DNA of 14,508 nucleotides, from the UHGV virus genome UHGV-0180765. One strand, 5' to 3'. The notes under the pieces were generated by a model that saw only the letters and a list, made by a program, of their open reading frames with translations, had not been told where the DNA came from and made no database searches. Positions 28 to 14,508 of this stretch are shown here, in pieces. Made by a program: the position numbers and the translations under genes. Source of the stretch: a virus. Within the stretch, counting starts at the first letter, position 1. Every line of letters begins with the position of its first letter.

Positions 28-585
28 CTATACGATGCATGGATTACTCCGGATACCGCCAATCACCAGCCTGCCGTGCGGGTCGTCGTAAGCCAGTGCC
101 TGCTGCTGACCGAGTATTTTGTTGATTACCTCAATCACCGTTTCACCGTGATCAGGCTGAACATCAGGAATAACACCCGACGGCGCACCGCTGTTCACCA
201 CCTCAATGCCGAAAGGCGCAGCAAGCGCCTGCGCAATCTGCACCAGCGAGCGTCCGTTAAACTGTGTCGGTTCGGCTGCACAGTCAATCAGGTCAGCCGT
301 CAGACTACGTCCGGCAATACCGGTGCTGACCGAACGGGAATCGTAACGAACGGGCGTCGCCTCCACCCAGCCGGTGATCACCAGCTCATCACCAATCAGC
401 ACTTCCACTTTTGAACCGTTTTTAATGCGCGGCTGAAGCGTGGTGATACCCTCATCTCCCGGCCACTGGCGGGTGATCTCCACACTGAAATCCCGCGCCA
501 GCCGTTCAATACCGGCACCGATGCGCACCGATGTCCAGCCATTCCACTCCCGGCCATTTACCCGTAGCGTGACATTGTCGTTCAT
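28..585 (-). CDS. putative phage tail/baseplate protein (possibly a short or truncated Mu P / P2 gpD-like hub); assignment weak
   Basis: 185-aa ORF whose ATG (583-585) overlaps the stop of the upstream 507-aa ORF (ATGA coupling). Composition and gene order suggest a tail-module protein. It ends at a stop 27 nt from the window edge, much shorter than hub proteins of this family, so it may be frameshifted or truncated. No alignment was possible. Confidence 0.3.
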   Translation of the reverse strand: MNDNVTLRVNGREWNGWTSVRIGAGIERLARDFSVEITRQWPGDEGITTLQPRIKNGSKVEVLIGDELVITGWVEATPVRYDSRSVSTGIAGRSLTADLIDCAAEPTQFNGRSLVQIAQALAAPFGIEVVNSGAPSGVIPDVQPDHGETVIEVINKILGQQQALAYDDPHGRLVIGGIRSNPCIV

Positions 586-2105
586 TGCACTGGCACCTTC
601 AGAGGGATCACCGGCACAAAGCCGGGATGCGTAATGGCATTACGCCGGATAATGTCCGCGTCACGCGCCGCGTTATCAAACCAGGTCGCCGCCAGCACCA
701 GCGCGGGTAAAACCTCATCCGGTGTGCGCTGAATGATCCGTGCAGACTGTTCAAGGCGCGTGTTGATATCCGCATTCAGATCTGCTTTCACCCGGCGCAG
801 CGCCAGAAACAGCGCATCGCTGGTTGTACGGGACAACTCCTTATCAATTGCCGTATTCAGTGTGTCGCGAATGTCAGTCAGTTCTTCCCACGTCGGCAGG
901 TCAACCGTGTTTTTCACCGCCGGTGCATTGTTCAGTGCCGGATGCGTGACGGAAGGCCAGCCAGTGCTCTGCGCGGGTGTTGTTGCCTGCCCCACTGCGG
1001 AATTCTGCATCACCGCGGAAGTTGTTGGCGCAGGCAATCGGGTGACGGCATACGCCGCTTCGCTGATTGCGGTCGTACGAAGGGTGCTGGCAACCACGTT
1101 ACGCTGCTGCGTCGCCGTGGCGGTGGTTTTACTGTCCGTTTTCCAGACGCCGCGCGGTTGCAGATCGCTGCCGAGGCTGACACCGGAAAGCGTTTTGATC
1201 ATGGTGACCAGGTCGCTGGCGTTACCATAAAGGCGTTTCCCGGTACGCCACATTTTCTGCACCTGCTCAACGAAATTTTTGCCTGACGATGGCGGCGGCA
1301 GAAGTACCGAGATATCCCCCTGCAACAGCCTGGCGGCATCCGATACGGCAGAATCCACCACTTTCATCGCATCAGAAACATACCCAAGCATTGTGCTGGC
1401 ATTACCGATAACGTCGTTCTGCACGAAATCCGCCACACCATCGATACTGAAACCGCTGAAGCTGTCACTGATGCGGTCATCCAGTGCAGAACAGGATGAC
1501 ATCAGCGTCTGCGCCGTCGCCGCACCTGATGTGGGGTAAGAGAGTTCTCCTGCTTCGACAAACTTCAGGTCAAAGCGGACAATACGCCCTTCACTTTTCG
1601 ATGTGCTGACCCGAACTTCCCCGTCAACACAGACTTTCAGCTCACCATATGTCGGGTGGACAAGCGTGCCGGGACCGGGTTTATTCAGCGCTTCAATCAG
1701 GCGATCGCGCTGGTCAAAGCAGTCATCTCCCACCACATAAGCTGTGATGGACGGGCGGAAAGTGACTTTTCCCAGATCTTCGGTATGGCGTAACGACTGG
1801 ATAGTGGTGATATCACCGGTTACGACATCAACCAGGTCTTTGGTTTCATAACCGAGATATGTGTGTTTGAGAGCATCTTTTACCCAAGCTGGAGTGGCGA
1901 ACGTTTTACCCCTGCTGATGAGGTATTCACTGATTTCGCTGTACCACATGTGGCTGAGTGCATTCTGGGAAAGACTGCGTCTCTCGCGCCACGGTTTAAG
2001 CACCATGCGAAAGCATTTGCCGTCCTCCAGATAAGGCTGGATCTGCCGACCGATAGCGGTGAAGTTACCGCGATGCAATTTGATACCATCTTGTGGGAGG
2101 TTCAC
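582..2105 (-). CDS. putative Mu gp N-like DNA circulation / tail assembly protein
   Basis: 507-aa ORF with GTG start at 2105 preceded by GGAGGTG (RBS); Ser/Thr/Ala-rich central region; translationally coupled to the downstream 185-aa ORF. Size and gene order resemble the Mu N-P pair found in Mu-like tail modules of SfV-type phages. Family call is from memory and synteny only. Confidence 0.4.
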
Positions 2106-2380
2106 GCTTCACCTCCGCAGAGGTCAAACGTTGGATGCAAGATATCGCAGGTGCATTTCTGCATCTGTGACTGGTTGAAAGGTGTTCTGATTGTCGTTTG
2201 CACTTTGAGTCCCCTCAAAGCGCAGAAGTCACCGGAGTTGTTCAGGCTCCGATGACATGATTATGGCGAGTTGATTATGATGAATCAATAGGTTCTTATG
2301 TCAAATGGACACTAGATCCAAAGGAGGGTAACAATTATCATAGCCAATGAGATTAATCTCATTTTTAATAAGGAAATTTC

Positions 2381-3799
2381 ATGAAATATTTCTCAACTGG
2401 TTTTTATGTTTCAAACTCCACATCTCTAGCTGAGATCTTTAATGAATGTTTTTCTTGGGTAAACGACTCACCACATACAACTTTTATTCCAGCACAATTA
2501 GTATGTGATTATAAAAGCGAGGAGTACTTCATAGAGTCTAAAAATGAAAGAATTGATATAATAACTTATAAAAACAAAGATACTAGTTTAGGCTGTTTTA
2601 GGTATTCGAAAATATCTGAGCCACACAAATGGGTAACAGATATTTCAATTAATAAAAATCTCAAAACTGATACCATGTGGATTCAGGTGGAATCTAGCGT
2701 TGTAAGCCAAGATGCAGCTTATCTAGCCCCGCAACCTAAGAAACCATTAGTTGTTATGAGATTGATTGATAAATTTCCTGGTGGTCTTGATGATATTTTC
2801 AAGGTGTCAGTCGAACCTCATTCCTTAGATGATACTGATGAACATTTAAATATAGCAGCTAAAGTTATAAATGGTGAAACTGACAACAGACTACCAATAA
2901 TATACGTTAGCTCCAAGTATTTTTTTAATGAACATGCTCACAATATCATCCCAGAACGCCTTGCAAGAAAGGTATGCGGATTAGCACATGTATTAATTGA
3001 GCCTAGCAATAGACTATTTTCTATTAAGCTAAAAAATGAGACAAATGCTAAAAATGCCTATGCTGGTGCTGTTGGTATCTATTGGCCACGGGGTCAAAAT
3101 ATCAGTTTTTATCGCCGTGGTGAGAAAACCGCAAAAGAATTTGAAGATGAGTTATTTGATGATGTTGTAAGAGCTACGACTACAATGGCTCCTGTCTCAG
3201 ATAGTGGATGGAGTGAGATACAAACCAGAAAAACGAAAGACTCTATTAACTCACTCAAAGAAAGAGGAGAATACACACGCGAACTGATGGCGCTTTACGA
3301 AGCCGATAATGTTGCGAAAGATGACCAAATAGAAGATCTTAAGCATAAGATCTCCTCTTTAGAGCACAGAGTACGCACTCTTCAATCACAAGCTTCAGCC
3401 CAAGGAAGCATTGCGCTTAATGCTGGTGAAGAGACTGACTTTTTTGATGGAGAAATCAAAAATATAATTATTGACGCACTAAAAACTGCCATAAAAAATA
3501 AAAATGAATTTGGTAGAAGCTACCATATCTTATCATCCCTAATTGCCAATAATGAATACAATAAAGAAACCGAGAGTCGCCGCCAATTACTTAAAAGGAC
3601 TTTAACAGGTTACAGAAGCATGGATAGCGCAACACAAAGAAATTTAAAGGACTTAGGTTTCAGTGCGTCAAGCGATGGAAAACACTGGAAGTTAACATAT
3701 AATGAAGACCCTCGATATTCCTATATTTTACCTAAAACAGGAAGTGACCACAGAGGTTCTTTAAATGCTATCTCGGATATAGCAAATATTATTTTCTAA
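2381..3799 (+). CDS. hypothetical protein, low-GC orphan gene (function unknown; candidate accessory/defence cargo)
   Basis: 472-aa ORF with AAGGAAA RBS 4-5 nt before ATG 2381. Strongly AT-rich relative to the flanking lambda-like genes (by eye, not computed). Opposite strand to both flanking operons. Predicted coiled-coil segment in the middle (LKHKISSLEHRVRTLQSQ). No family recognised. Confidence 0.7.
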   Translation: MKYFSTGFYVSNSTSLAEIFNECFSWVNDSPHTTFIPAQLVCDYKSEEYFIESKNERIDIITYKNKDTSLGCFRYSKISEPHKWVTDISINKNLKTDTMWIQVESSVVSQDAAYLAPQPKKPLVVMRLIDKFPGGLDDIFKVSVEPHSLDDTDEHLNIAAKVINGETDNRLPIIYVSSKYFFNEHAHNIIPERLARKVCGLAHVLIEPSNRLFSIKLKNETNAKNAYAGAVGIYWPRGQNISFYRRGEKTAKEFEDELFDDVVRATTTMAPVSDSGWSEIQTRKTKDSINSLKERGEYTRELMALYEADNVAKDDQIEDLKHKISSLEHRVRTLQSQASAQGSIALNAGEETDFFDGEIKNIIIDALKTAIKNKNEFGRSYHILSSLIANNEYNKETESRRQLLKRTLTGYRSMDSATQRNLKDLGFSASSDGKHWKLTYNEDPRYSYILPKTGSDHRGSLNAISDIANIIF

Positions 3800-3806
3800 T
3801 AAATTT

Positions 3807-3834
3807 CAATAGCACTCACAAATGAGTGCTATTG
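3807..3834. terminator. strong hairpin between convergent genes (putative bidirectional terminator)
   Basis: Inverted repeat caatagcactca / tgagtgctattg with 4-nt loop (caaa), 12 nt after the stop of the 472-aa ORF and 17 nt from the stop of the convergent 84-aa ORF. T-tracts on both sides are weak. Confidence 0.5.
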
Positions 3835-3850
3835 TTGCCACTGAATTATT

Positions 3851-4105
3851 CTATTTAAATTCAACTTTTATCCCTTTGTTTAGCAGGGCATCAGAAACTG
3901 CCTTTTTTGTAACATTTATCCCTGCAAGCAATGCTTTATGCATTGGTCCCTTAAAAATCTCTACTTCTTCTTCAGTGAGTTTAGGCAATGTAATATAAAT
4001 AACATCTTTCATCTGCTTGTTTTTATAGCATGAGCTTCTTGTGTGCTTACAATCGATATTTTCTTTATTTCCCAAAACATCATCCCCTTTATAATTCAGT
4101 TCCAC
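3851..4105 (-). CDS. hypothetical small protein (AT-rich), doubtful
   Basis: 84-aa ORF from GTG 4105 with no obvious RBS; an internal ATG at 4012 (53-aa product) has only a weak RBS. It lies in the low-GC island directly downstream of ren in the pR-direction transcript. Coding status uncertain. Confidence 0.3.
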   Translation of the reverse strand: MELNYKGDDVLGNKENIDCKHTRSSCYKNKQMKDVIYITLPKLTEEEVEIFKGPMHKALLAGINVTKKAVSDALLNKGIKVEFK

Positions 4106-4169
4106 ACATCAATTATTTAGTTATCACGAATGTCGTAAAACTAAAATTAGTAACAATAATTGCTCATAC

Positions 4170-4457
4170 CTACCCTCTTCCATATAAAGCCAACACCCGC
4201 TTCATCGCGGCACTTTGACGACACTCCTTAAAAATCAGATTCGTGCTCACCTTTCCTTCCCGTTCTTCTCTGGTAGCGAACCGGTAATACACCGTTCGCC
4301 AGACCTTACCATCAACGACCAGGATTCCTGCCCGCGCCATTTTAGCCGCAGCCTGATTTATGCTGGTTACGGTTGCGCCTGTTACCGCGGCAACGTCCTG
4401 CGCACAGAAGTTCTTATGAGTCCCCAGGTAATGAATAATTGCCTCTTTGCCCGTCAT
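4170..4457 (-). CDS. ren: Ren protein (lambda Ren family)
   Basis: 95-aa product MTGKEAIIHYLGTHKNFCAQDVAAVTGATVTSINQAAAKMARAG... matches lambda Ren as I recall it over essentially its full length. Its start overlaps the P stop (ATGA), as in lambda. Confidence 0.85.
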   Translation of the reverse strand: MTGKEAIIHYLGTHKNFCAQDVAAVTGATVTSINQAAAKMARAGILVVDGKVWRTVYYRFATREEREGKVSTNLIFKECRQSAAMKRVLALYGRG

Positions 4458-5155: not shown

Positions 5156-6081
5156 AAATCCACCCCGTAAATCCAGTCAGTGTTTGTCAGGTCGAGTTTT
5201 GATTTTCCGGCTGTCACGCCAGCCTGTTGCTTGTTACGGTTGATTTCGAGTTGGGTCCACTTGTCGCGGAGTTTGGCCGGACTTAGCACGTTACCGGACC
5301 AGAAGTTGTCCTGGCATGCCCAGCGGAACAGCACGCACATGTCGCGGTGGTTACGGCCGTCACGTTCACGCATCAGGCGGATATCGTTAGCCCACCCTGC
5401 AAAATTCGGTTTTCTGGCTGATGGCGCGATGGTCTTCACCATGTCAAACATCCACTCTGCGGCGGTCAGGTCTTCTGCTGTCCCCCACTTGCTGCCACTC
5501 TGAATTGCAGCATCCGGTTTAACCACAGGAAGATCGTCTTCTGGTTGGTCAGAGGATTCGCCAGAATTCTCGGACGAAAAAGGTTTTATATTGTCTTTTG
5601 TTAGTTTGTCTTTTGTGTTTACCTGATTCGGGTAAACGCCTTTACCTGATTTGGGTAAACTTTTCTTACCTGATTCAGGTAAATTTACCTCTTTCAGGTA
5701 AACTTTATTTTTCTTACCTGATTCGGGTAATGTTGACCATTCACTGACCACATTATTAATGCCTATATTCCGCCCGCTCTGAATAAAAATCCCACGCTTT
5801 ACCAGAGCACTTTTTGCAGCAGAACACTTGTGCGGCAATATCCCGGTCAACTCGGAAAGTTGCTCGTTGCTCACCCAATCCAGTTTTTTATTAAAGCCAT
5901 ATGTTTTGCGCATGACAGCCAGGAAGACCAGAAGCTGGTGCTGTGTTAATCCGGCCAGCATTACAGCTTCCAGCAACTCATTTGCAATGCGCGTATAACC
6001 ATCATCGAGATCTGCCACGCGCGGCTCCTTTTGTGCCGCATCCGGCACAGGAAAATTGAATATCTCAGCAGTGTTTGCCAT
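5152..6081 (-). CDS. O: replication initiator O (hybrid: non-lambda N-terminal iteron-binding domain, lambda-like C-terminal P-interaction domain)
   Basis: Start placed at ATG 6079-6081, preceded by GGAGG plus 4 nt; the N-terminus MANTAEIFNF... parallels lambda O MTNTAKILNF.... The C-terminal half (SSENSGESSDQPEDDL...WIYGVDL) matches lambda O as recalled. The ori iterons lie inside the gene. The ORF track's longer start at 6171 is less likely. Confidence 0.85.
   Translation of the reverse strand: MANTAEIFNFPVPDAAQKEPRVADLDDGYTRIANELLEAVMLAGLTQHQLLVFLAVMRKTYGFNKKLDWVSNEQLSELTGILPHKCSAAKSALVKRGIFIQSGRNIGINNVVSEWSTLPESGKKNKVYLKEVNLPESGKKSLPKSGKGVYPNQVNTKDKLTKDNIKPFSSENSGESSDQPEDDLPVVKPDAAIQSGSKWGTAEDLTAAEWMFDMVKTIAPSARKPNFAGWANDIRLMRERDGRNHRDMCVLFRWACQDNFWSGNVLSPAKLRDKWTQLEINRNKQQAGVTAGKSKLDLTNTDWIYGVDL
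5618..5732. repeat. replication origin iterons (five ~19-bp direct repeats) with adjacent T-rich tract
   Basis: Five copies of TTACCTGATTCGGGTAA-like repeats starting near 5618, 5641, 5666, 5685 and 5714, each internally palindromic (TTACC...GGTAA). They are followed at 5591-5617 by a duplicated ttgtcttttg T-rich tract. Located inside the O linker region, as lambda ori is. Confidence 0.75.
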
Positions 6082-6167
6082 AATTCCTCCCGCAATGAGT
6101 GTGTTACGATTTGCACCTGAAAGTCGGTTCTGTTCCCGCAGACCGACTTTCGCCATTTTTGAACCTG

Positions 6168-6707
6168 TCATATTGCCCCCAACATGGTGGTAACCATCGC
6201 CATCAATGGACCAGCCAGATCCGGGTCCACACGAAACATCGACACAATACCTTCACTCATCTCCTTCAGTTTCTGGTGGCGTGGTGCGTTGAGAATGACA
6301 GCCTGTTTTGCCTCACTGAGTTCCTTTTCCATTTCAGCCAACCGAGTCATGAAGCTATCCTGCTCAACCAGGTAACCGCGATATTCCAGCGGTAGTACCG
6401 CCAGAATTGCCGGGGTCAGTTCACGCACGTTATTTCGGTATTTTTCAGAATCGAATTTGTTATCGAGGAAGCGGAACAGCTTCTGGCGTGCACGGCTGAC
6501 ATCATCAGGGAAATCGATGGTGCCGCCGCCCTGCTCCCGATACTCATTCACAATGAGTGCGGCAACAACATCCTGATTATCTGCAGCCGACCAGGCGCGG
6601 ACGGCATCACGGATTTTTTCGTGGCCTGGCACCTGTTTTGTTTGAGAACGATTTATCACCGCAGTCGGGCTAAATCCGCTAGTCTGTTGGTATGTAAGTG
6701 GTTGCAT
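6168..6707 (-). CDS. YdaT-like protein (CII-position regulator)
   Basis: 179-aa ORF with AAGGAG RBS 6 nt before ATG 6707. Lies between the cro-like gene and O, where cII sits in lambda. Motifs EYREQGGG and TPAILAVLPLEYR resemble the Rac prophage YdaT family as I recall it. Family call is from memory. Confidence 0.5.
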   Translation of the reverse strand: MQPLTYQQTSGFSPTAVINRSQTKQVPGHEKIRDAVRAWSAADNQDVVAALIVNEYREQGGGTIDFPDDVSRARQKLFRFLDNKFDSEKYRNNVRELTPAILAVLPLEYRGYLVEQDSFMTRLAEMEKELSEAKQAVILNAPRHQKLKEMSEGIVSMFRVDPDLAGPLMAMVTTMLGAI

Positions 6708-6752
6708 AATTGACTCCTTTAGTTTGAATTGACTGTTAAGTTGATTGCTTAT

Positions 6753-6765
6753 TGTTAAAGAGCGT
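6753..6765 (-). promoter_or_regulatory. boxA-like element (nutR-type) downstream of the cro-like gene
   Basis: The minus strand reads CGCTCTTTAACAA, the boxA consensus, 12 nt after the cro-like stop codon, where nutR sits in lambda. No convincing boxB hairpin was found next to it. Confidence 0.45.
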
Positions 6766-6776
6766 GAAATGGAAAT

Positions 6777-7007
6777 TTAAGCTGCGTTCTTTTCGGTGTG
6801 TGGAAACAACTTCGGAAGATCCGGGCGAATCTGGTATGCCTTCACTACTCCACCAGTAGCCGTAACAATGCTGCCGACATGTTCAGGGGATACCTTTGCT
6901 TTGTTGTGAAGCCACTTATAGACGGCCTGCTGTGAAACTTCGCAGGCAGCGCCCAGTTTCTTTTGTGAACCAACGATATTGATCGCTGTTTTGATAGCTG
7001 GGTTCAT
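6777..7007 (-). CDS. Cro/YdaS-family helix-turn-helix regulator
   Basis: 76-aa ORF with GGAGG RBS 5 nt before ATG 7007; an HTH-like segment (GSQKKLGAACEVSQQAVYKW); divergent from the CI-like repressor gene across an operator region. Confidence 0.6.
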   Translation of the reverse strand: MNPAIKTAINIVGSQKKLGAACEVSQQAVYKWLHNKAKVSPEHVGSIVTATGGVVKAYQIRPDLPKLFPHTEKNAA

Positions 7008-7111
7008 AACAACCTCCGTGGTTAATTCGAATCAAGATTAAAACTATGGTTGTTTTTAGTCAACAACCATTTTCGTTTGATAGAATAAAACCTTGGTTGT
7101 ACATTTGGACT
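7008..7111. promoter_or_regulatory. oR-type operator region with divergent pR (minus) and pRM (plus) promoters
   Basis: Perfect inverted repeat ATGGTTGTT-7nt-AACAACCAT at 7046-7070, plus further TGGTTGT/ACAACCA half-sites at 7008-7014, 7019-7025 (degenerate) and 7094-7100. Candidate pRM: -35 TTGATA 7077-7082, 17-nt spacer, -10 TACATT 7100-7105, placing the transcript start at or next to the cI ATG (leaderless, as for lambda pRM). Candidate pR on the minus strand: -35 TTGACT (plus 7058-7063) and -10 TTTAAT (plus 7037-7042). Confidence 0.6.
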
Positions 7112-7801
7112 ATGAAAACAACACTCTCAGAAAGACTTAAAGAAGCCAGATTAGCGCGAGGCCTTACACAAAAGGCGCTTGGGGATTTGGTCGGGGTTAG
7201 CCAAGCTGCTATTCAGAAAATCGAAACAGGGAAAGCTAACCAAACAACTAAAATCGTGGAGATCGCGAACGCTTTGGGTGTGCGCGCAGAATGGTTATCT
7301 TCTGGCGTTGGAAATATGTCAGACAGTACAGTGCAACCAATACCATCAACTGTCAGCCATTCCAAATACTTTAAGATTGACGTTCTTGATATAGAAGTGA
7401 GTGCCGGGCCGGGAGTCATCAACCGTGAGTTTGTAGAAGTTCTACGCTCGGTTGAGTACTCGTTTGACGATGCTCGTCACATGTTCGATGGTAGGAAGGC
7501 AGAAAATATCCGCATCATTAACGTACGCGGTGACAGCATGTCAGGAACGATCGAACCAGGTGATCTGCTGTTCGTTGATATCACGGTTAAATCTTTCGAC
7601 GGTGATGGCATCTATGCGTTTCTGTACGACGACACCGCCCATGTAAAGCGCCTGCAAATGATGAAGGATAAGCTGCTGGTTATCTCTGATAACAAGAGCT
7701 ACTCACCGTGGGACCCGATCGAGAAAGACGAGATGAACCGGGTGTTTATCTTCGGGAAAGTTATTGGGAGCATGCCGCAAACATATAGGAAGCATGGTTA
7801 G
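7112..7801 (+). CDS. CI-type prophage repressor (XRE HTH + S24 LexA-like autopeptidase domain)
   Basis: 229-aa product from ATG 7112 (MKTTLSERLKEARLARGLTQKALGDLVGVSQAAIQKIE...). N-terminal HTH; C-terminal S24 motifs GDSM (Ser nucleophile) and VKRL (Lys). The upstream extension to 7046 in the ORF track is spurious, as its ATG is part of the operator palindrome. Confidence 0.85.
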   Translation: MKTTLSERLKEARLARGLTQKALGDLVGVSQAAIQKIETGKANQTTKIVEIANALGVRAEWLSSGVGNMSDSTVQPIPSTVSHSKYFKIDVLDIEVSAGPGVINREFVEVLRSVEYSFDDARHMFDGRKAENIRIINVRGDSMSGTIEPGDLLFVDITVKSFDGDGIYAFLYDDTAHVKRLQMMKDKLLVISDNKSYSPWDPIEKDEMNRVFIFGKVIGSMPQTYRKHG

Positions 7802-7872
7802 CTAAAACACAAGATAGACTTACCTACAAACAACCACCAGTTAAAATAAATAAAAATCAAAGAGATAATGTC

Positions 7873-8784
7873 ATGAGCCATCAGTCCGCCCACCAACAAG
7901 AAATGTCTTTATTTCCTGTAAAAGAAGTTGAAGTAAACGGTGTACAAATGGGTGTTCTCAATGATGGAACTCCATTTTTGAGTCTCCGTGGATTATCTAG
8001 GTTATGTGGGGTCGATCACACCACACTTTTACCTCTCACCACCAACTGGTCAATAGAAAAGAATAAACCCAGAGGAAGGAGAATTGCGGAGCTTCTTTCA
8101 GAGAATGGTTTTAAAGGTGATCAATTATATTCCGTTGTCGGCGGAGGCGCATTTGGTGATACACATGCCTATCCAGATGCCGTATGCATGGCAATTCTTG
8201 AATATTATGCTTTCGATGCCACACAGGTTGATAGCACTATAGCCAGGAAAAATTACCGCCTATTAGCACGTCAAACACTTCGAGACTATATATACAAAAG
8301 TGTAGGTATTGACCCGAGAAATCCAATTAGTGGCGCCTGGAAATGTTTTCAAGAGCGAATATTGCTTAATGACAAAATTCCTGCAGGTTTCTTCAGTGTT
8401 TTTAGAGAGATGGTCGATATCACAGTTCCACTTATCAATGCAGGATTTGAGCTTGGCCCAAAAACAGTACCTGATATTAGTGTGGGTGGACGATGGGCAA
8501 TCCACTGGAAGAAAAACAATCTTAGTGAAAAATATGGCGATGTGAAAAAATATCCACATGAATATCCAGATTGGTTTCCTCAAAGTAAAGCAGGAAAAGT
8601 TCCTGCCAATATTTATCCGGAAGAGGCTTTAGGTGAATTTCGCAGATGGCTAAGAGAAGAATACATTCCAAAGGGTTTCAAAGATTATCTTGCTGATAAA
8701 GTTCAGCAGAAAGTAATTGAAAATACTAAGGCTATTGAAGTTTTAGAAAATTTGCAGCGCCCAAATCTCCCTAAGGCTCGTTAA
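7873..8784 (+). CDS. hypothetical protein encoded between repressor and pL (rexAB-equivalent position); function unknown
   Basis: 303-aa ORF, AT-rich relative to cI (by eye), followed by its own intrinsic terminator. The N-terminal ~60 residues (LFPVKEVEVNGVQMGVLNDGTPFLSLRGLSRLCGV) loosely resemble the pattern of Bro-N/ORF6N-type phage DNA-binding domains; this is an impression, not an alignment. C-terminus is Tyr/Trp/Pro-rich. Confidence 0.7.
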   Translation: MSHQSAHQQEMSLFPVKEVEVNGVQMGVLNDGTPFLSLRGLSRLCGVDHTTLLPLTTNWSIEKNKPRGRRIAELLSENGFKGDQLYSVVGGGAFGDTHAYPDAVCMAILEYYAFDATQVDSTIARKNYRLLARQTLRDYIYKSVGIDPRNPISGAWKCFQERILLNDKIPAGFFSVFREMVDITVPLINAGFELGPKTVPDISVGGRWAIHWKKNNLSEKYGDVKKYPHEYPDWFPQSKAGKVPANIYPEEALGEFRRWLREEYIPKGFKDYLADKVQQKVIENTKAIEVLENLQRPNLPKAR

Positions 8785-8791
8785 TTCTCAT

Positions 8792-8818
8792 CCCGGCTGC
8801 CATGCCGGGTTTCTTTTG
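8792..8818 (+). terminator. intrinsic (rho-independent) terminator after the 303-aa gene
   Basis: Stem CCCGGC (8792-8797), loop tgccat, stem GCCGGG (8804-8809), then TTTCTTTTG, beginning 8 nt after the stop codon. Confidence 0.65.
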
Positions 8819-8904
8819 CCTTCTCCTCATCACACACCGTTCAAAAAACCACCACGACCTCGCTTCAGTTATCGCTATGCGATGCAAGTCACAAAATAAA
8901 TCCA

Positions 8905-8990
8905 TCTTAAATACAACCAGTTATATCTAAAACAACCAACAAAACAACTTTTGTTGTTGACGATAAAACAACTATAGTTTTAAATGAATT
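8905..8990 (+). promoter_or_regulatory. putative oL/pL region
   Basis: The oR half-site recurs here (ACAACCA at 8913-8919 and 8932-8938; palindrome AACAACttttGTTGTT at 8943-8958). Candidate promoter: -35 TTGACG 8957-8962, 17-nt spacer, -10 TTAAAT 8980-8985, directed toward gam/bet/exo. Operator-like repeats overlap the promoter. Confidence 0.45.
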
Positions 8991-9262
8991 CATCGCAACA
9001 ACACAACGATACGGCAATCACCTGATTCACCGTTGCGATGACCGCTTAGATCCGCAGCTTGAATTTCAGCAGGCTCCGGGGAGTGCGAGGGGTGAAGCGG
9101 ACGCGTGAACGTCGGTGTGACCAGCTGAAATCAACTCAACACTTCATACCTCAGTCGCTTCAACGAGGCGGCTTAGTTATGACAACCGGCGGCCATCCAC
9201 CGCCTGAATACGCGCAGAAGTCTCTATATGTTCAGCAGCCCAGCTTACGGGCAGGAGTTTTT

Positions 9263-9469
9263 ATGGTTCATCAACATTACGGAACGCAGACCGTTAATCG
9301 AGGTGCGGTCATGCCAGGAATGCTGGTCAAACACAAAGATGGTACCTGGACTGCATCAGCTAATTTACGCGGACGGCTATATCTGCATCGCGGCATCGAG
9401 CGCACTTATACCCGTGATTTGCTCGTGGAAGTTTTTCTCGACGGACGCGGTAACGGCCTGAATCACTAA
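9263..9469 (+). CDS. hypothetical small protein upstream of gam (kil/cIII position); may be the C-terminal part of a longer N-like ORF
   Basis: ATG 9263 is preceded by AGGAG plus 5 nt; 68 aa. The same frame is open back to 9059 (TTG), with GTG at 9092, giving an Arg-rich N-terminus (RGVRGVKRTRERR). Start choice and identity unresolved. Confidence 0.35.
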
Positions 9470-9544
9470 TCCCCTTTCCTGTTTTCCTAATCAGCCTGGC
9501 ATTTCGCGGGCGATATTTTCACAGCCATTTTCAGGAGTTCAGCC

Positions 9545-9841
9545 ATGAACGCTTATTACATTCAGGATCGTCTTGAGGCTCAGAGCTGGGCACGTCACTA
9601 CCAGCTGATCGCCCGTGAAGAGAAAGAGGCAGAACTGGCAGACGACATGGAAAAAGGTCTTCCACAGCACCTGTTTGAATCACTCTGCATCGATCATTTG
9701 CAACGCCACGGGGCCAGCAAAAAAGCCATTACTCGTGCATTTGATGACGATGTTGAGTTTCAGGAGCGTATGGCAGAACACATCCGGTACATGGTTGAAA
9801 CCATTGCTCACCACCAGGTTGATATTGATTCAGAGGTATAA
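9545..9841 (+). CDS. gam: Gam (RecBCD inhibitor), short form
   Basis: 98-aa product [44 protein letters not shown]... matches lambda GamS as recalled. RBS AGGAG upstream. The GamL extension is interrupted by in-frame stops. Confidence 0.9.
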
Positions 9842-9846
9842 AGCGG

Positions 9847-10632
9847 ATGAGTACAGCACTCGCAACGCTGGCAGGGAAGCTGGCTGAACGTGTCGGCATG
9901 GATTCTGTCGACCCACAGGAACTGATCACCACTCTTCGCCAGACGGCATTTAAAGGTGATGCCAGCGATGCGCAGTTCATCGCATTGTTGATCGTCGCCA
10001 ACCAGTACGGCCTTAATCCGTGGACGAAAGAAATTTACGCCTTCCCTGATAAGCAGAACGGCATCGTTCCGGTGGTGGGCGTTGATGGCTGGTCCCGCAT
10101 CATCAATGAAAACCAGCAGTTTGATGGCATGGACTTTGAGCAGGACAATGAATCCTGTACATGCCGGATTTACCGCAAGGACCGTAATCATCCGATCTGC
10201 GTTACCGAATGGATGGATGAATGCCGCCGCGAACCATTCAAAACTCGCGAAGGCAGAGAAATCACGGGGCCGTGGCAGTCGCATCCCAAACGGATGTTAC
10301 GGCATAAAGCCATGATTCAGTGTGCCCGTCTGGCCTTCGGATTTGCTGGTATCTATGACAAGGATGAAGCCGAGCGCATTGTCGAAAATACTGCATACAC
10401 TGCAGAACGTCAGCCAGAACGCGACATCACTCCGGTTAACGATGAAACCATGCAGGAGATTAACACTCTGCTGATCGCCCTGGATAAAACATGGGATGAC
10501 GACTTATTGCCGCTCTGTTCCCAGATATTTCGCCGCGACATTCGTGCATCGTCAGAACTGACACAGGCCGAAGCAGTGAAAGCTCTTGGATTCCTGAAAC
10601 AAAAAGCCACTGAGCAGAAGGTGGCAGCATGA
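9847..10632 (+). CDS. bet: Bet (Red-beta single-strand annealing protein)
   Basis: 261-aa product [44 protein letters not shown]... matches lambda Bet as recalled along its full length. Confidence 0.95.
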
Positions 10633-13079: not shown

Positions 13080-13401
13080 GGCCTGTCAGTTTCTCAAGAT
13101 ATCCAGACCTACCGCTACCAACTGGATACGAACAGGCCGCCTACAGGCAACACGCAAAGACCCCACTAAACTAAAATCTCCTTACCTCACAACACGACAA
13201 GCCTGCATTGCGGCGCTTCAGTCTCCGCTGCATACTGTCCAGGTGAGCGCGGGTGATGGCATAACAGAGGAAAGAAAATGTCACTCTTCCGCAGAGGTGA
13301 AATATGGTACGCCAGTTTCACATTGCCGAACGGTAAAAGATTTAAACAGTCTCTTGGAACAAAGGACAAAAGGCAGGCGACAGAGCTCCATGACAAGCTA
13401 A
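13051..13401 (+). CDS. xis: excisionase (P22 Xis type)
   Basis: 116-aa product from ATG 13051 ([38 protein letters not shown]...) resembles P22 Xis as recalled; its 3' part overlaps the int start. Confidence 0.8.
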
Positions 13402-14441
13402 AGGCTGAAGCATGGCGGGTCAGCAAACTTGGTGAAATACCTGATATGACGTTCGAGGAGGCGTGTATCAGGTGGCTCGAAGAGAAAGCACATAAAAAAT
13501 CACTGGACGATGACAAAAGCCGGATCGGATTCTGGCTTCAACATTTCGCAGGAATGCAACTAAGAGACATTACTGAATCAAAAATTTATTCAGCAATGCA
13601 GAAAATGACGAACCGGCGTCATGAGGAAAACTGGAAACTCAGGGCAGAAGCATGCAGAAAAAAAGGGAAACCTGTTCCAGAATACACGCCAAAACCAGCG
13701 TCCGTTGCAACGAAGGCTACGCATCTTTCATTTATAAAGGCCCTACTAAGAGCCGCAGAGCGTGAATGGAAAATGCTGGATAAGGCACCAATTATTAAAG
13801 TGCCTCAACCAAAGAATAAACGGATCCGCTGGCTGGAGCCCCATGAAGCACAAAGGCTGATTGATGAATGTCCGGAGCCATTAAAGTCTGTTGTTGAATT
13901 TGCACTGGCAACAGGCTTAAGACGCTCGAACATCATCAACCTTGAATGGCAACAAATAGATATGCAGCGCCGGGTGGCATGGATAAACCCGGAAGAGAGT
14001 AAATCAAACCGCGCAATCGGCGTTGCGCTGAATGATACTGCATGTCGCGTTTTGAAAAAACAAATCGGGAATCATCACCGTTGGGTATTTGTGTACAAGG
14101 AAAGCTGTACCAAACCAGACGGAACGAAAGCGCCAACAGTAAGGAAGATGCGGTATGACGCAAACACAGCCTGGAAAGCGGCGCTGAGACGGGCTGGTAT
14201 TGATGATTTCAGATTTCACGACTTGAGACACACCTGGGCAAGTTGGCTGGTTCAAGCCGGAGTCCCGTTGTCAGTGTTACAGGAAATGGGAGGCTGGGAG
14301 TCTATCGAAATGGTTCGTCGATATGCTCACCTTGCACCTAATCACCTTACCGAACACGCACGGCAAATAGACTCGATCCTGAACCCATCGGTCCCAAATT
14401 TGTCCCAGTCAAAAAATAAGGAAGGTACTAATGATGTGTAA
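13278..14441 (+). CDS. int: tyrosine integrase (P22 Int type)
   Basis: 387-aa product [47 protein letters not shown]... with tyrosine-recombinase motifs near the C-terminus ([17 protein letters not shown]). Resembles P22 Int as recalled. RBS AGAGGA upstream. Transcribed toward the tRNA 14 nt beyond its stop. Confidence 0.95.
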
Positions 14442-14455
14442 CTTATTGATTTAAA

Positions 14456-14508
14456 TGGTGCCGATAATAGGAGTCGAACCTACGACCTTCGCATTACGAA
14501 TGCGCTGC
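14456..14508 (-). tRNA. thrW: tRNA-Thr (anticodon CGU), 3' 53 nt only; continues beyond the window
   Basis: The reverse complement of the window end reads ...GCGCATTCGTAATGCGAAGGTCGTAGGTTCGACTCCTATTATCGGCACCA: anticodon loop TTCGTAA (anticodon CGT), T-arm GTAGG-TTCGACT-CCTAT, acceptor 3' strand, discriminator A and CCA. The 3' end points toward int, the usual att arrangement. Confidence 0.8.

Follow-up and report, generated by a model that had tools for sequence, protein, structure and literature searches.

A bstA-family gene and a predicted aba element between the cI repressor and the candidate pL of a lambdoid prophage

Gene order and transcription signals around bstA

The window, by which we mean the whole 14,508-nucleotide stretch of viral DNA that was analysed, contains the early region of a lambdoid prophage, as judged from gene calls, Pfam and PHROG. 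The minus strand carries a YdaS/Cro-like gene (6777-7007), a YdaT/CII-like gene (6168-6707), the replication genes O and P, and ren. A cI-type repressor of 229 residues, recognised by both Pfam and PHROG, is encoded on the plus strand at 7112-7801; it contains HTH_3 (E=5e-13) and Peptidase_S24 (E=1.2e-18) domains, and the same gene, with the same start, is present in the RefSeq annotation of E. coli JS01. The gene studied here, bstA, follows on the same strand, and after it come kil, gam, bet and exo. With YdaS, YdaT and KilR, the immunity region is Rac-like.

The bstA open reading frame (7873-8784, plus strand) begins with an ATG 71 bp past the repressor stop codon and encodes 303 residues plus a stop. 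It is followed by an intrinsic terminator (8792-8815, plus strand), the equivalent of t_imm, formed by a hairpin and a T-run and lying in the conserved backbone. A 6-bp all-GC stem (8792-8809) precedes TTTCTTTT, the fold has an energy of -13.1 kcal/mol (z=-3.6), and none of 200 shuffled sequences equalled it. The record of phage CL707 has a Timm terminator annotated at the equivalent position. The layout described in the original prediction, a gene after cI on the same strand that ends in a clean terminator before oL/pL, was recovered in full.

The spacer between cI and bstA (7802-7872, plus strand) contains an SD-like AGAGA (7861-7865) and neither a terminator-like site nor a stable fold (-3.9 kcal/mol, z=+0.8). 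For the spacer and for the predicted aba region described below (7832-7894), the ideas of a riboregulator and of a concealed terminator were rejected, as RNA folding revealed no structure (-0.5 kcal/mol for the aba region), and Rfam gave no match in or near the bstA locus. The sole promoter-like match upstream of bstA in the promoter scan was a weak TTAAAA-17-GATAAT (9/12) at 7841-7869. With a -10 element that ends 4 nt short of the ATG, this site cannot yield a translatable leader and was discarded as a promoter for bstA, and the expectation that the gene has no strong independent promoter was borne out. The spacer without a terminator, the absence of a credible promoter for bstA itself and the strong terminator after the gene form a layout from which we infer that the maintenance promoter pRM drives cI and bstA together; cI is probably the first gene of a lysogenic transcript that also carries bstA.

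A candidate oL/pL was recognised at 8913-8985 (plus strand). It comprises ACAACC at 8913 and 8932, a palindrome, AACAACTTTTGTTGTT, and a candidate promoter, TTGACG-17-TTAAAT (8957-8985), that points toward kil-gam-bet-exo; this promoter was recognised by reading the sequence alone, since the scan does not list it because its -10 has no A at position 2. A pattern search found four copies of ACAACC in the oR region (7009-7100), two at 8913-8937 and one at 7830. The lone ACAACCA at 7830, which had been regarded as not significant by itself, is indeed a single copy and was rejected as an operator, since relatives of the same clade read GACCACCA there, without ACAACC; it overlaps the left repeat of the predicted aba. 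On the minus strand, a promoter-like TTGCGA-16-TATAGT (8971-8998), which uses the palindrome AACTATAGTT also found inside the candidate pL, faces back to the terminator and bstA and may be a chance occurrence. The interval 8986-9262, which separates the candidate pL from kil (9263-9469), contained no ORF for an N-like antiterminator and no RNA recognised by Rfam.

The BstA protein and exchange of its cassette

The product of the gene is clearly a member of the BstA family. It matched PHROG 6287, 'BstA abortive infection system, replication inhibitor', over residues 2-301 (E=7.5e-141), and the PADLOC model for BstA over residues 5-297 (E=7.1e-122). BLASTP against BstA-BTP1 of Salmonella phage BTP1 showed 216 identical residues out of 299 (72%) with one gap (E=8e-171). 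All 33 columns that are invariant in the family are present in the window protein, and a database search returned 984 homologues, with PF26567 (BstA_C) in 120/120 among the matches listed. PF26567 is annotated on the same gene in related contigs as well as on homologues; its assignment comes from these precomputed annotations and not from the Pfam-A scan, which detected a sub-threshold match to DHQ_synthase alone (E=0.067). NCBIfam had no match to the protein, and a profile search of PDB sequences gave none at E<=1. The BstA-aba kind of system was described in 2021 and is already represented in PADLOC and PHROGs; the window allele is a new member of it.

Two domains can be assigned, a KilA-N-like domain at the N-terminus (residues 1-150 or so, 7873-8322, plus strand) and a BstA_C domain (residues 151-303 or so, 8323-8781, plus strand). 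An AlphaFold model built with 56 homologues (pLDDT 85) has a beta/alpha fold in its N-terminal domain, is helical in the C-terminal part and leaves residues 1-9 disordered (pLDDT <50). A BFVD structure search gave weak matches to KilA-N, Bro-N and antirepressor proteins (TM 0.2-0.3), and the BstA_C domain had no counterpart among the solved structures searched. These results agree with the KilA-N(-like) N-terminal domain and uncharacterised C-terminal domain that have been published for the family (PMC8585504). The resemblance of the N-terminus to Bro-N/ORF6N domains that had been proposed is seen in these weak structural matches and not at the level of Pfam, where no Bro-N or ORF6N match was seen at E<=1. 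A rival reading is that the gene encodes an ordinary phage regulator of the KilA-N, Bro-N or antirepressor class that controls phage genes rather than serving defence. Assignment to such a family was looked for, and the Pfam models for KilA-N, Bro-N, ORF6N and ANT were all unmatched at E<=1. The protein is instead 72% identical, over its full length, to an abortive-infection defence protein proven genetically (PMC8585504), and its gene belongs to the operon of lysogeny, downstream of cI, while a stable lysogen does not express antirepressors. According to a section heading of the original paper, BstA of BTP1 is without effect on lysogenic development (PMC8585504). We therefore regard a regulatory role as extremely improbable.

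BstA-BTP1 is encoded downstream of cI and is highly expressed in the lysogen, where it provides resistance to P22, ES18, 9NA, lambda, phi80, P1 and T7 by abortive infection (PMC8585504). BstA is found together with the DNA of the infecting phage, replication of that DNA is blocked, and lysis of the cell yields no progeny; two homologues that are 42-48% identical to the BTP1 protein, one from E. coli and one from K. pneumoniae, act alike (PMC8585504). By analogy with these three tested homologues, the window allele would be expected to confer abortive-infection defence, and the proposal that it is a candidate defence gene was strengthened by the PADLOC and BLASTP matches, with function assigned by homology. 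A main role in modulating host virulence or fitness, rather than in phage defence, has been attached to the orthologue, which BTP1 records label st313-td, and earlier reports tied the gene to virulence or anti-virulence (noted in PMC8585504); a region 100% identical to that of the window also occurs in an E. coli strain from chicken liver. Those reports proposed no mechanism, whereas defence was demonstrated for three homologues by means of heterologous expression and mutants with stop codons (PMC8585504). The tight linkage of the family to prophage repressor loci across alpha-, beta- and gammaproteobacteria (PMC8585504) suits a phage-versus-phage function, and we consider a primary role in virulence very unlikely.

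Composition sets bstA apart from its flanks. Its GC content is 0.402 (GC3 0.293), compared to 0.470 (0.509) for cI and 0.499 for the backbone, that is, the window without its two low-GC genes; the impression that the gene is more AT-rich than cI was therefore correct. In a blastn comparison of the window with a related prophage that has the identical repressor (L002), homology was restricted to 5200-7797 and 8792-10600. Prophages with this repressor (WP_000858972.1) and the same pL carry 1553 bp of unrelated DNA in this position, with an ORF of 337 residues, and homology returns at 8792, where the terminator stem begins. The breakpoints at 7797 and 8792 therefore define an exchangeable cassette (7798-8791, plus strand) made up of the spacer, the predicted aba and bstA, with the terminator belonging to the backbone. 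They document the exchange of defence cargo in the slot between cI and t_imm among otherwise identical prophages, and comparison of the cI-pL interval in this way upheld the suggestion that the slot is a hotspot for cargo.

The bstA gene of the window occurs in 3 of 5426 complete E. coli genomes, while thousands share parts of its flanks. Positions 6700-9100 match the E. coli JS01 chromosome at 100% identity; the ORF is labelled 'hypothetical protein' there (WP_000019488.1), and this RefSeq entry can now be named BstA, a defence protein. More than 200 contigs from several Enterobacteriaceae encode the identical protein, and in 10/10 other contigs with it that were examined, representing at least three integration sites, bstA directly follows an S24 repressor gene on the same strand, in keeping with the gene arrangement published for the family (PMC8585504). 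The identical BstA adjoins two repressor alleles, the second of which (230 residues) is carried by three contigs (L092, L093 and L094). Because these three show no homology to the window over 6709-7349 and become homologous from 7350 on, within cI, the same bstA-aba cassette probably serves prophages that are heteroimmune.

Another region of the window, at about 2279-4178, looks like a second hotspot for defence cargo. It contains a 472-residue gene (2381-3799, plus strand) between ren and ybcN, with very low GC (0.357; GC3 0.273) and an orientation opposite to that of its neighbours. The product weakly matches the candidate system HEC-07 in PADLOC (E=1e-9), and its C-terminal part matches a PHROG whose function is not assigned. 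Related prophages carry in this interval a SNIPE/T5orf172 protein, a pair of AAA_21 and RloB genes, a hydrolase with a resolvase, or other genes.

A predicted aba element and repeats across the family

The BTP1 prophage evades its own BstA by means of aba, a 63-bp DNA formed by 29 bp upstream of bstA and the first 34 bp of the gene (PMC8585504). The element works as DNA and in trans needs a high copy number; it requires both terminal CCCGCC direct repeats, and a G->T change in either abolishes function (PMC8585504). Every bstA locus tested protects solely against its own protein (PMC8585504). How BstA and aba act, and whether BstA binds aba, was left open even for BTP1 (PMC8585504).

Alignment with the mapped BTP1 aba places a predicted aba (anti-BstA) element of 63 bp at 7832-7894, across the bstA start codon. 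It is bounded by two direct repeats of CCACCA, the left at 7834-7839 (9-mer context CAACCACCA, 7831-7839) and the right at 7890-7895 (9-mer context CGCCCACCA, 7887-7895), and these lie 56 bp apart, the same spacing as that of the CCCGCC repeats of BTP1. In the DNA alignment, the left CCCGCC of BTP1 stands opposite ACCACC (7833-7838) and the right opposite CCCACC (7889-7894), and the register of both repeats relative to the conserved LFPVKEVEV codons is the same as in BTP1. Both window repeats have an A at the position of the G that is essential for the BTP1 aba, on which basis we predict that the two aba elements are not interchangeable. The right repeat falls within bstA codons 6-8, and would be free to vary since these codons belong to the N-terminal tail, which is disordered. 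At 7861-7863 the window has AGA in place of the ancestral ATG, and its translation begins four codons downstream; this shift accounts for a length of 303 rather than 307 residues.

Taken by itself, the repeat in the window is short (6 nt exact, 7/9 in the wider box), and a repeat of equal length was present in about 75% of shuffled sequences. A search for the longest repeats in the window alone did not single out the aba repeats, and the signal needs comparison across the family. The pattern was therefore examined family-wide, using 80 viral contigs together with phage records and anchoring each locus on the conserved LFPV codons; 40 representatives were kept at <80% ungapped identity. An exact direct repeat of at least 6 nt at a spacing of 55-58 bp was present in 24/40 loci, whereas shuffled sequences averaged 2.3 such loci and never exceeded 7, and other spacing bins in the real sequences held such a repeat in 1-9 loci. 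When 8-mers matching at 7/8 positions or better were counted, 10 loci had them at a spacing of 56 and 12 at a spacing of 57, with ~0.7 expected per spacing.

The box sequences differ between lineages and include CCACCA, CCCGCCA, GCACCA, ACAGCA, GGTCAGCA, GGGCAGCA, TCACCA, ATCCCT, CCGCCAG, GAGCACCAC and ATTGGTCCCCACC. Within a locus the left box agrees with the right one at 6.8/9 positions, and between loci at 5.6/9, and 0/2000 permutations reached the observed value; the terminal repeats therefore co-vary, as would be predicted for a cognate aba. Positional homology with BTP1 and this covariation in the family together lead us to predict that 7832-7894 is the cognate aba element of the window. 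The remaining 16/40 loci had no exact repeat of at least 6 nt at 55-58 bp, and several had just 3-4 nt there, which may indicate that either the repeat architecture is not universal, or the anchoring of loci fails in these exceptions. In two close relatives of the window with 86-88% protein identity (L007 and L009), the left CCACC is found about 90 bp upstream of the LFPV codons, a displacement by 11 bp that widens the spacing from 56 to 67 bp, or by about one helical turn. On balance, we put at about even the chances that an aba architecture can be read across the family, in the form of two direct repeats of ~6-13 bp that lie 55-57 bp apart around the start codon, are specific to each variant and co-vary between left and right. 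No report of a family-wide aba repeat architecture was found in the literature searched, where aba had been mapped in BTP1 only (PMC8585504); in later papers that mention anti-BstA the term was absent from title and abstract and had 1-4 occurrences in the text.

Comparison of recombinant pairs suggested a link between the boxes and one domain of the protein. The window and BTP1 proteins are 57% identical in the N-terminal domain and 88% in the C-terminal domain. Two other family members (L010 and L040) are 97% identical in the C-terminal domain and 63% in the N-terminal domain and have different boxes (CCACCA and CCGCCA), and in a further pair (L049 and L043) the N-terminal domains are 85% and the C-terminal domains 60% identical and the box is the same. 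The link is visible only in the recombinant pairs L010/L040 and L049/L043, and rank correlation of box similarity with N- or C-domain identity over all pairs was not discriminating (0.55 versus 0.60). In these pairs box type follows the N-terminal domain, which is consistent with the hypothesis that the KilA-N-like domain reads aba. The association may simply reflect physical linkage, as aba adjoins the part of bstA that encodes the N-terminal domain and both would be expected to move together in recombination. Should the proposed architecture be real, the window allele would represent a 'CCACCA' immunity type, distinct from the 'CCGCCA' type of BTP1 despite C-terminal domains that are 88% identical, and the repeats would be a specificity determinant read by the N-terminal domain.

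Proposed mechanism and comparison with known systems

From its homology and layout, we think it highly likely that the bstA allele of the window is a single-protein abortive-infection defence, with a cognate aba for self-immunity, of an Enterobacteriaceae lambdoid prophage with Rac-like immunity. The layout suggests that the pRM transcript continues through cI, and BstA would then be present in every lysogen. On infection by an unrelated phage, BstA would gather at the replicating phage DNA and block its replication, as judged by homology to the BstA proteins that Owen et al. (2021) studied from BTP1, E. coli and K. pneumoniae. By the same homology, the infected cell would lyse without releasing progeny, and the population and the prophage would be protected. 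The predicted element at 7832-7894, with its two CCACCA repeats, would act as the cognate aba; when the prophage itself replicates, the multiple copies of aba DNA would neutralise BstA, and its own lytic growth would not be aborted.

Whether this last step matters for the present copy depends on the state of the prophage. At the left end of the window, a 507-residue ORF (582-2105, minus strand) is a chimera, in which the first ~110 codons are the nin-region gene ybcN and the remainder, in frame from 1781 leftward, encodes a Mu-like DNA-circularisation protein. A gp44/GpP-like baseplate gene (28-585) follows, and GC rises to 0.55-0.59. This may indicate that either the prophage is rearranged and defective, or the assembly is chimeric. 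A genuine bstA residing in a rearranged and probably non-inducible prophage, as a domesticated host defence with the aba-like sequence as a relic, is possible though doubtful. In its favour, no Q, lysis or head genes lie between the in-frame ybcN fusion at 1781/1782 and the baseplate genes, the junction at 1781/1782 occurs in no complete E. coli genome, and a related contig (L095) has another junction, at the equivalent of window position 1849, to myovirus head-tail genes. Against it, only 14.5 kb is visible, so that the modules not seen may be located outside it or the junction may have arisen in assembly, and two contigs with the same protein (L089 and L091) have normal nin, Q and lysis genes in the region that is visible. 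The question also concerns the fate of this copy and not the nature of the system, for which abortive-infection defence with cognate aba is the reading we prefer; if the prophage is rearranged, as the left end suggests, aba self-immunity may be irrelevant in this particular prophage. At the opposite end, a gene for a tyrosine integrase (13278-14441) precedes a partial tRNA gene (14459-14508, minus strand), of which the 3' part is present and which is cut by the end of the window; it was detected by Rfam at 33 bits and not by ARAGORN. In related contigs proA and proB adjoin the integrase/tRNA end. The attachment site is probably a tRNA gene; the JS01 prophage, in contrast, sits at ybhC.

Among known proteins, those with a KilA-N/APSES domain for DNA binding (Iyer et al. 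2002) show no Pfam-level match to the window protein and weak fold scores, and BstA_C is unmatched in solved structures. The RexAB system of lambda is alike in its slot between cI and pL that ends at t_imm, in its co-expression with cI and in its abortive-infection outcome; it differs in having no homology to BstA and in being a two-gene module, as against the single gene of the window. The PADLOC scan returned no Rex model, and for this slot gave BstA and a weak HTH model only. RexAB is a two-protein system of a sensor and a membrane channel; BstA, one protein presumed to bind DNA, blocks phage DNA replication. We know of no DNA-encoded self-immunity element in RexAB.

BstA-Ec of E. coli NCTC10963 and BstA-Kp of K. 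pneumoniae 52.145 are closer, being repressor-adjacent members of the same family, and are nevertheless far more distant from BTP1 (42-48% identical) than is the window allele. Each has its own cognate aba, without cross-protection (PMC8585504). The relatives that we compared in their place were phage CL707 (46% identical to the window protein), with the box ATCCCT, and Klebsiella phage RCIP0114 (51%), with the box TGGTCAnCA.

The closest counterpart is BstA-aba of BTP1, which shares with the window 72% protein identity over nearly the full length, the two-domain build, the slot after cI, a terminator of its own, and 63 bp spanning the start codon whose ends carry direct repeats in the same register, at a distance of 56 bp. 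The two differ in their carriers, a P22-like Lederbergvirus for BTP1 and a Rac-like/lambdoid prophage of E. coli type for the window, in the start codon, which lies four codons downstream in the window, and in the unequal conservation of the domains (57% against 88%). They differ also in the repeats, CCCGCC(A) in BTP1 and CCACCA in the window, at the very G whose change to T inactivates the BTP1 aba. The original study left open which domain reads aba and which bases set specificity; with a C-terminal domain near that of BTP1, a different N-terminal domain and the critical base changed in both aba repeats, the window allele is a natural test case for these two points.
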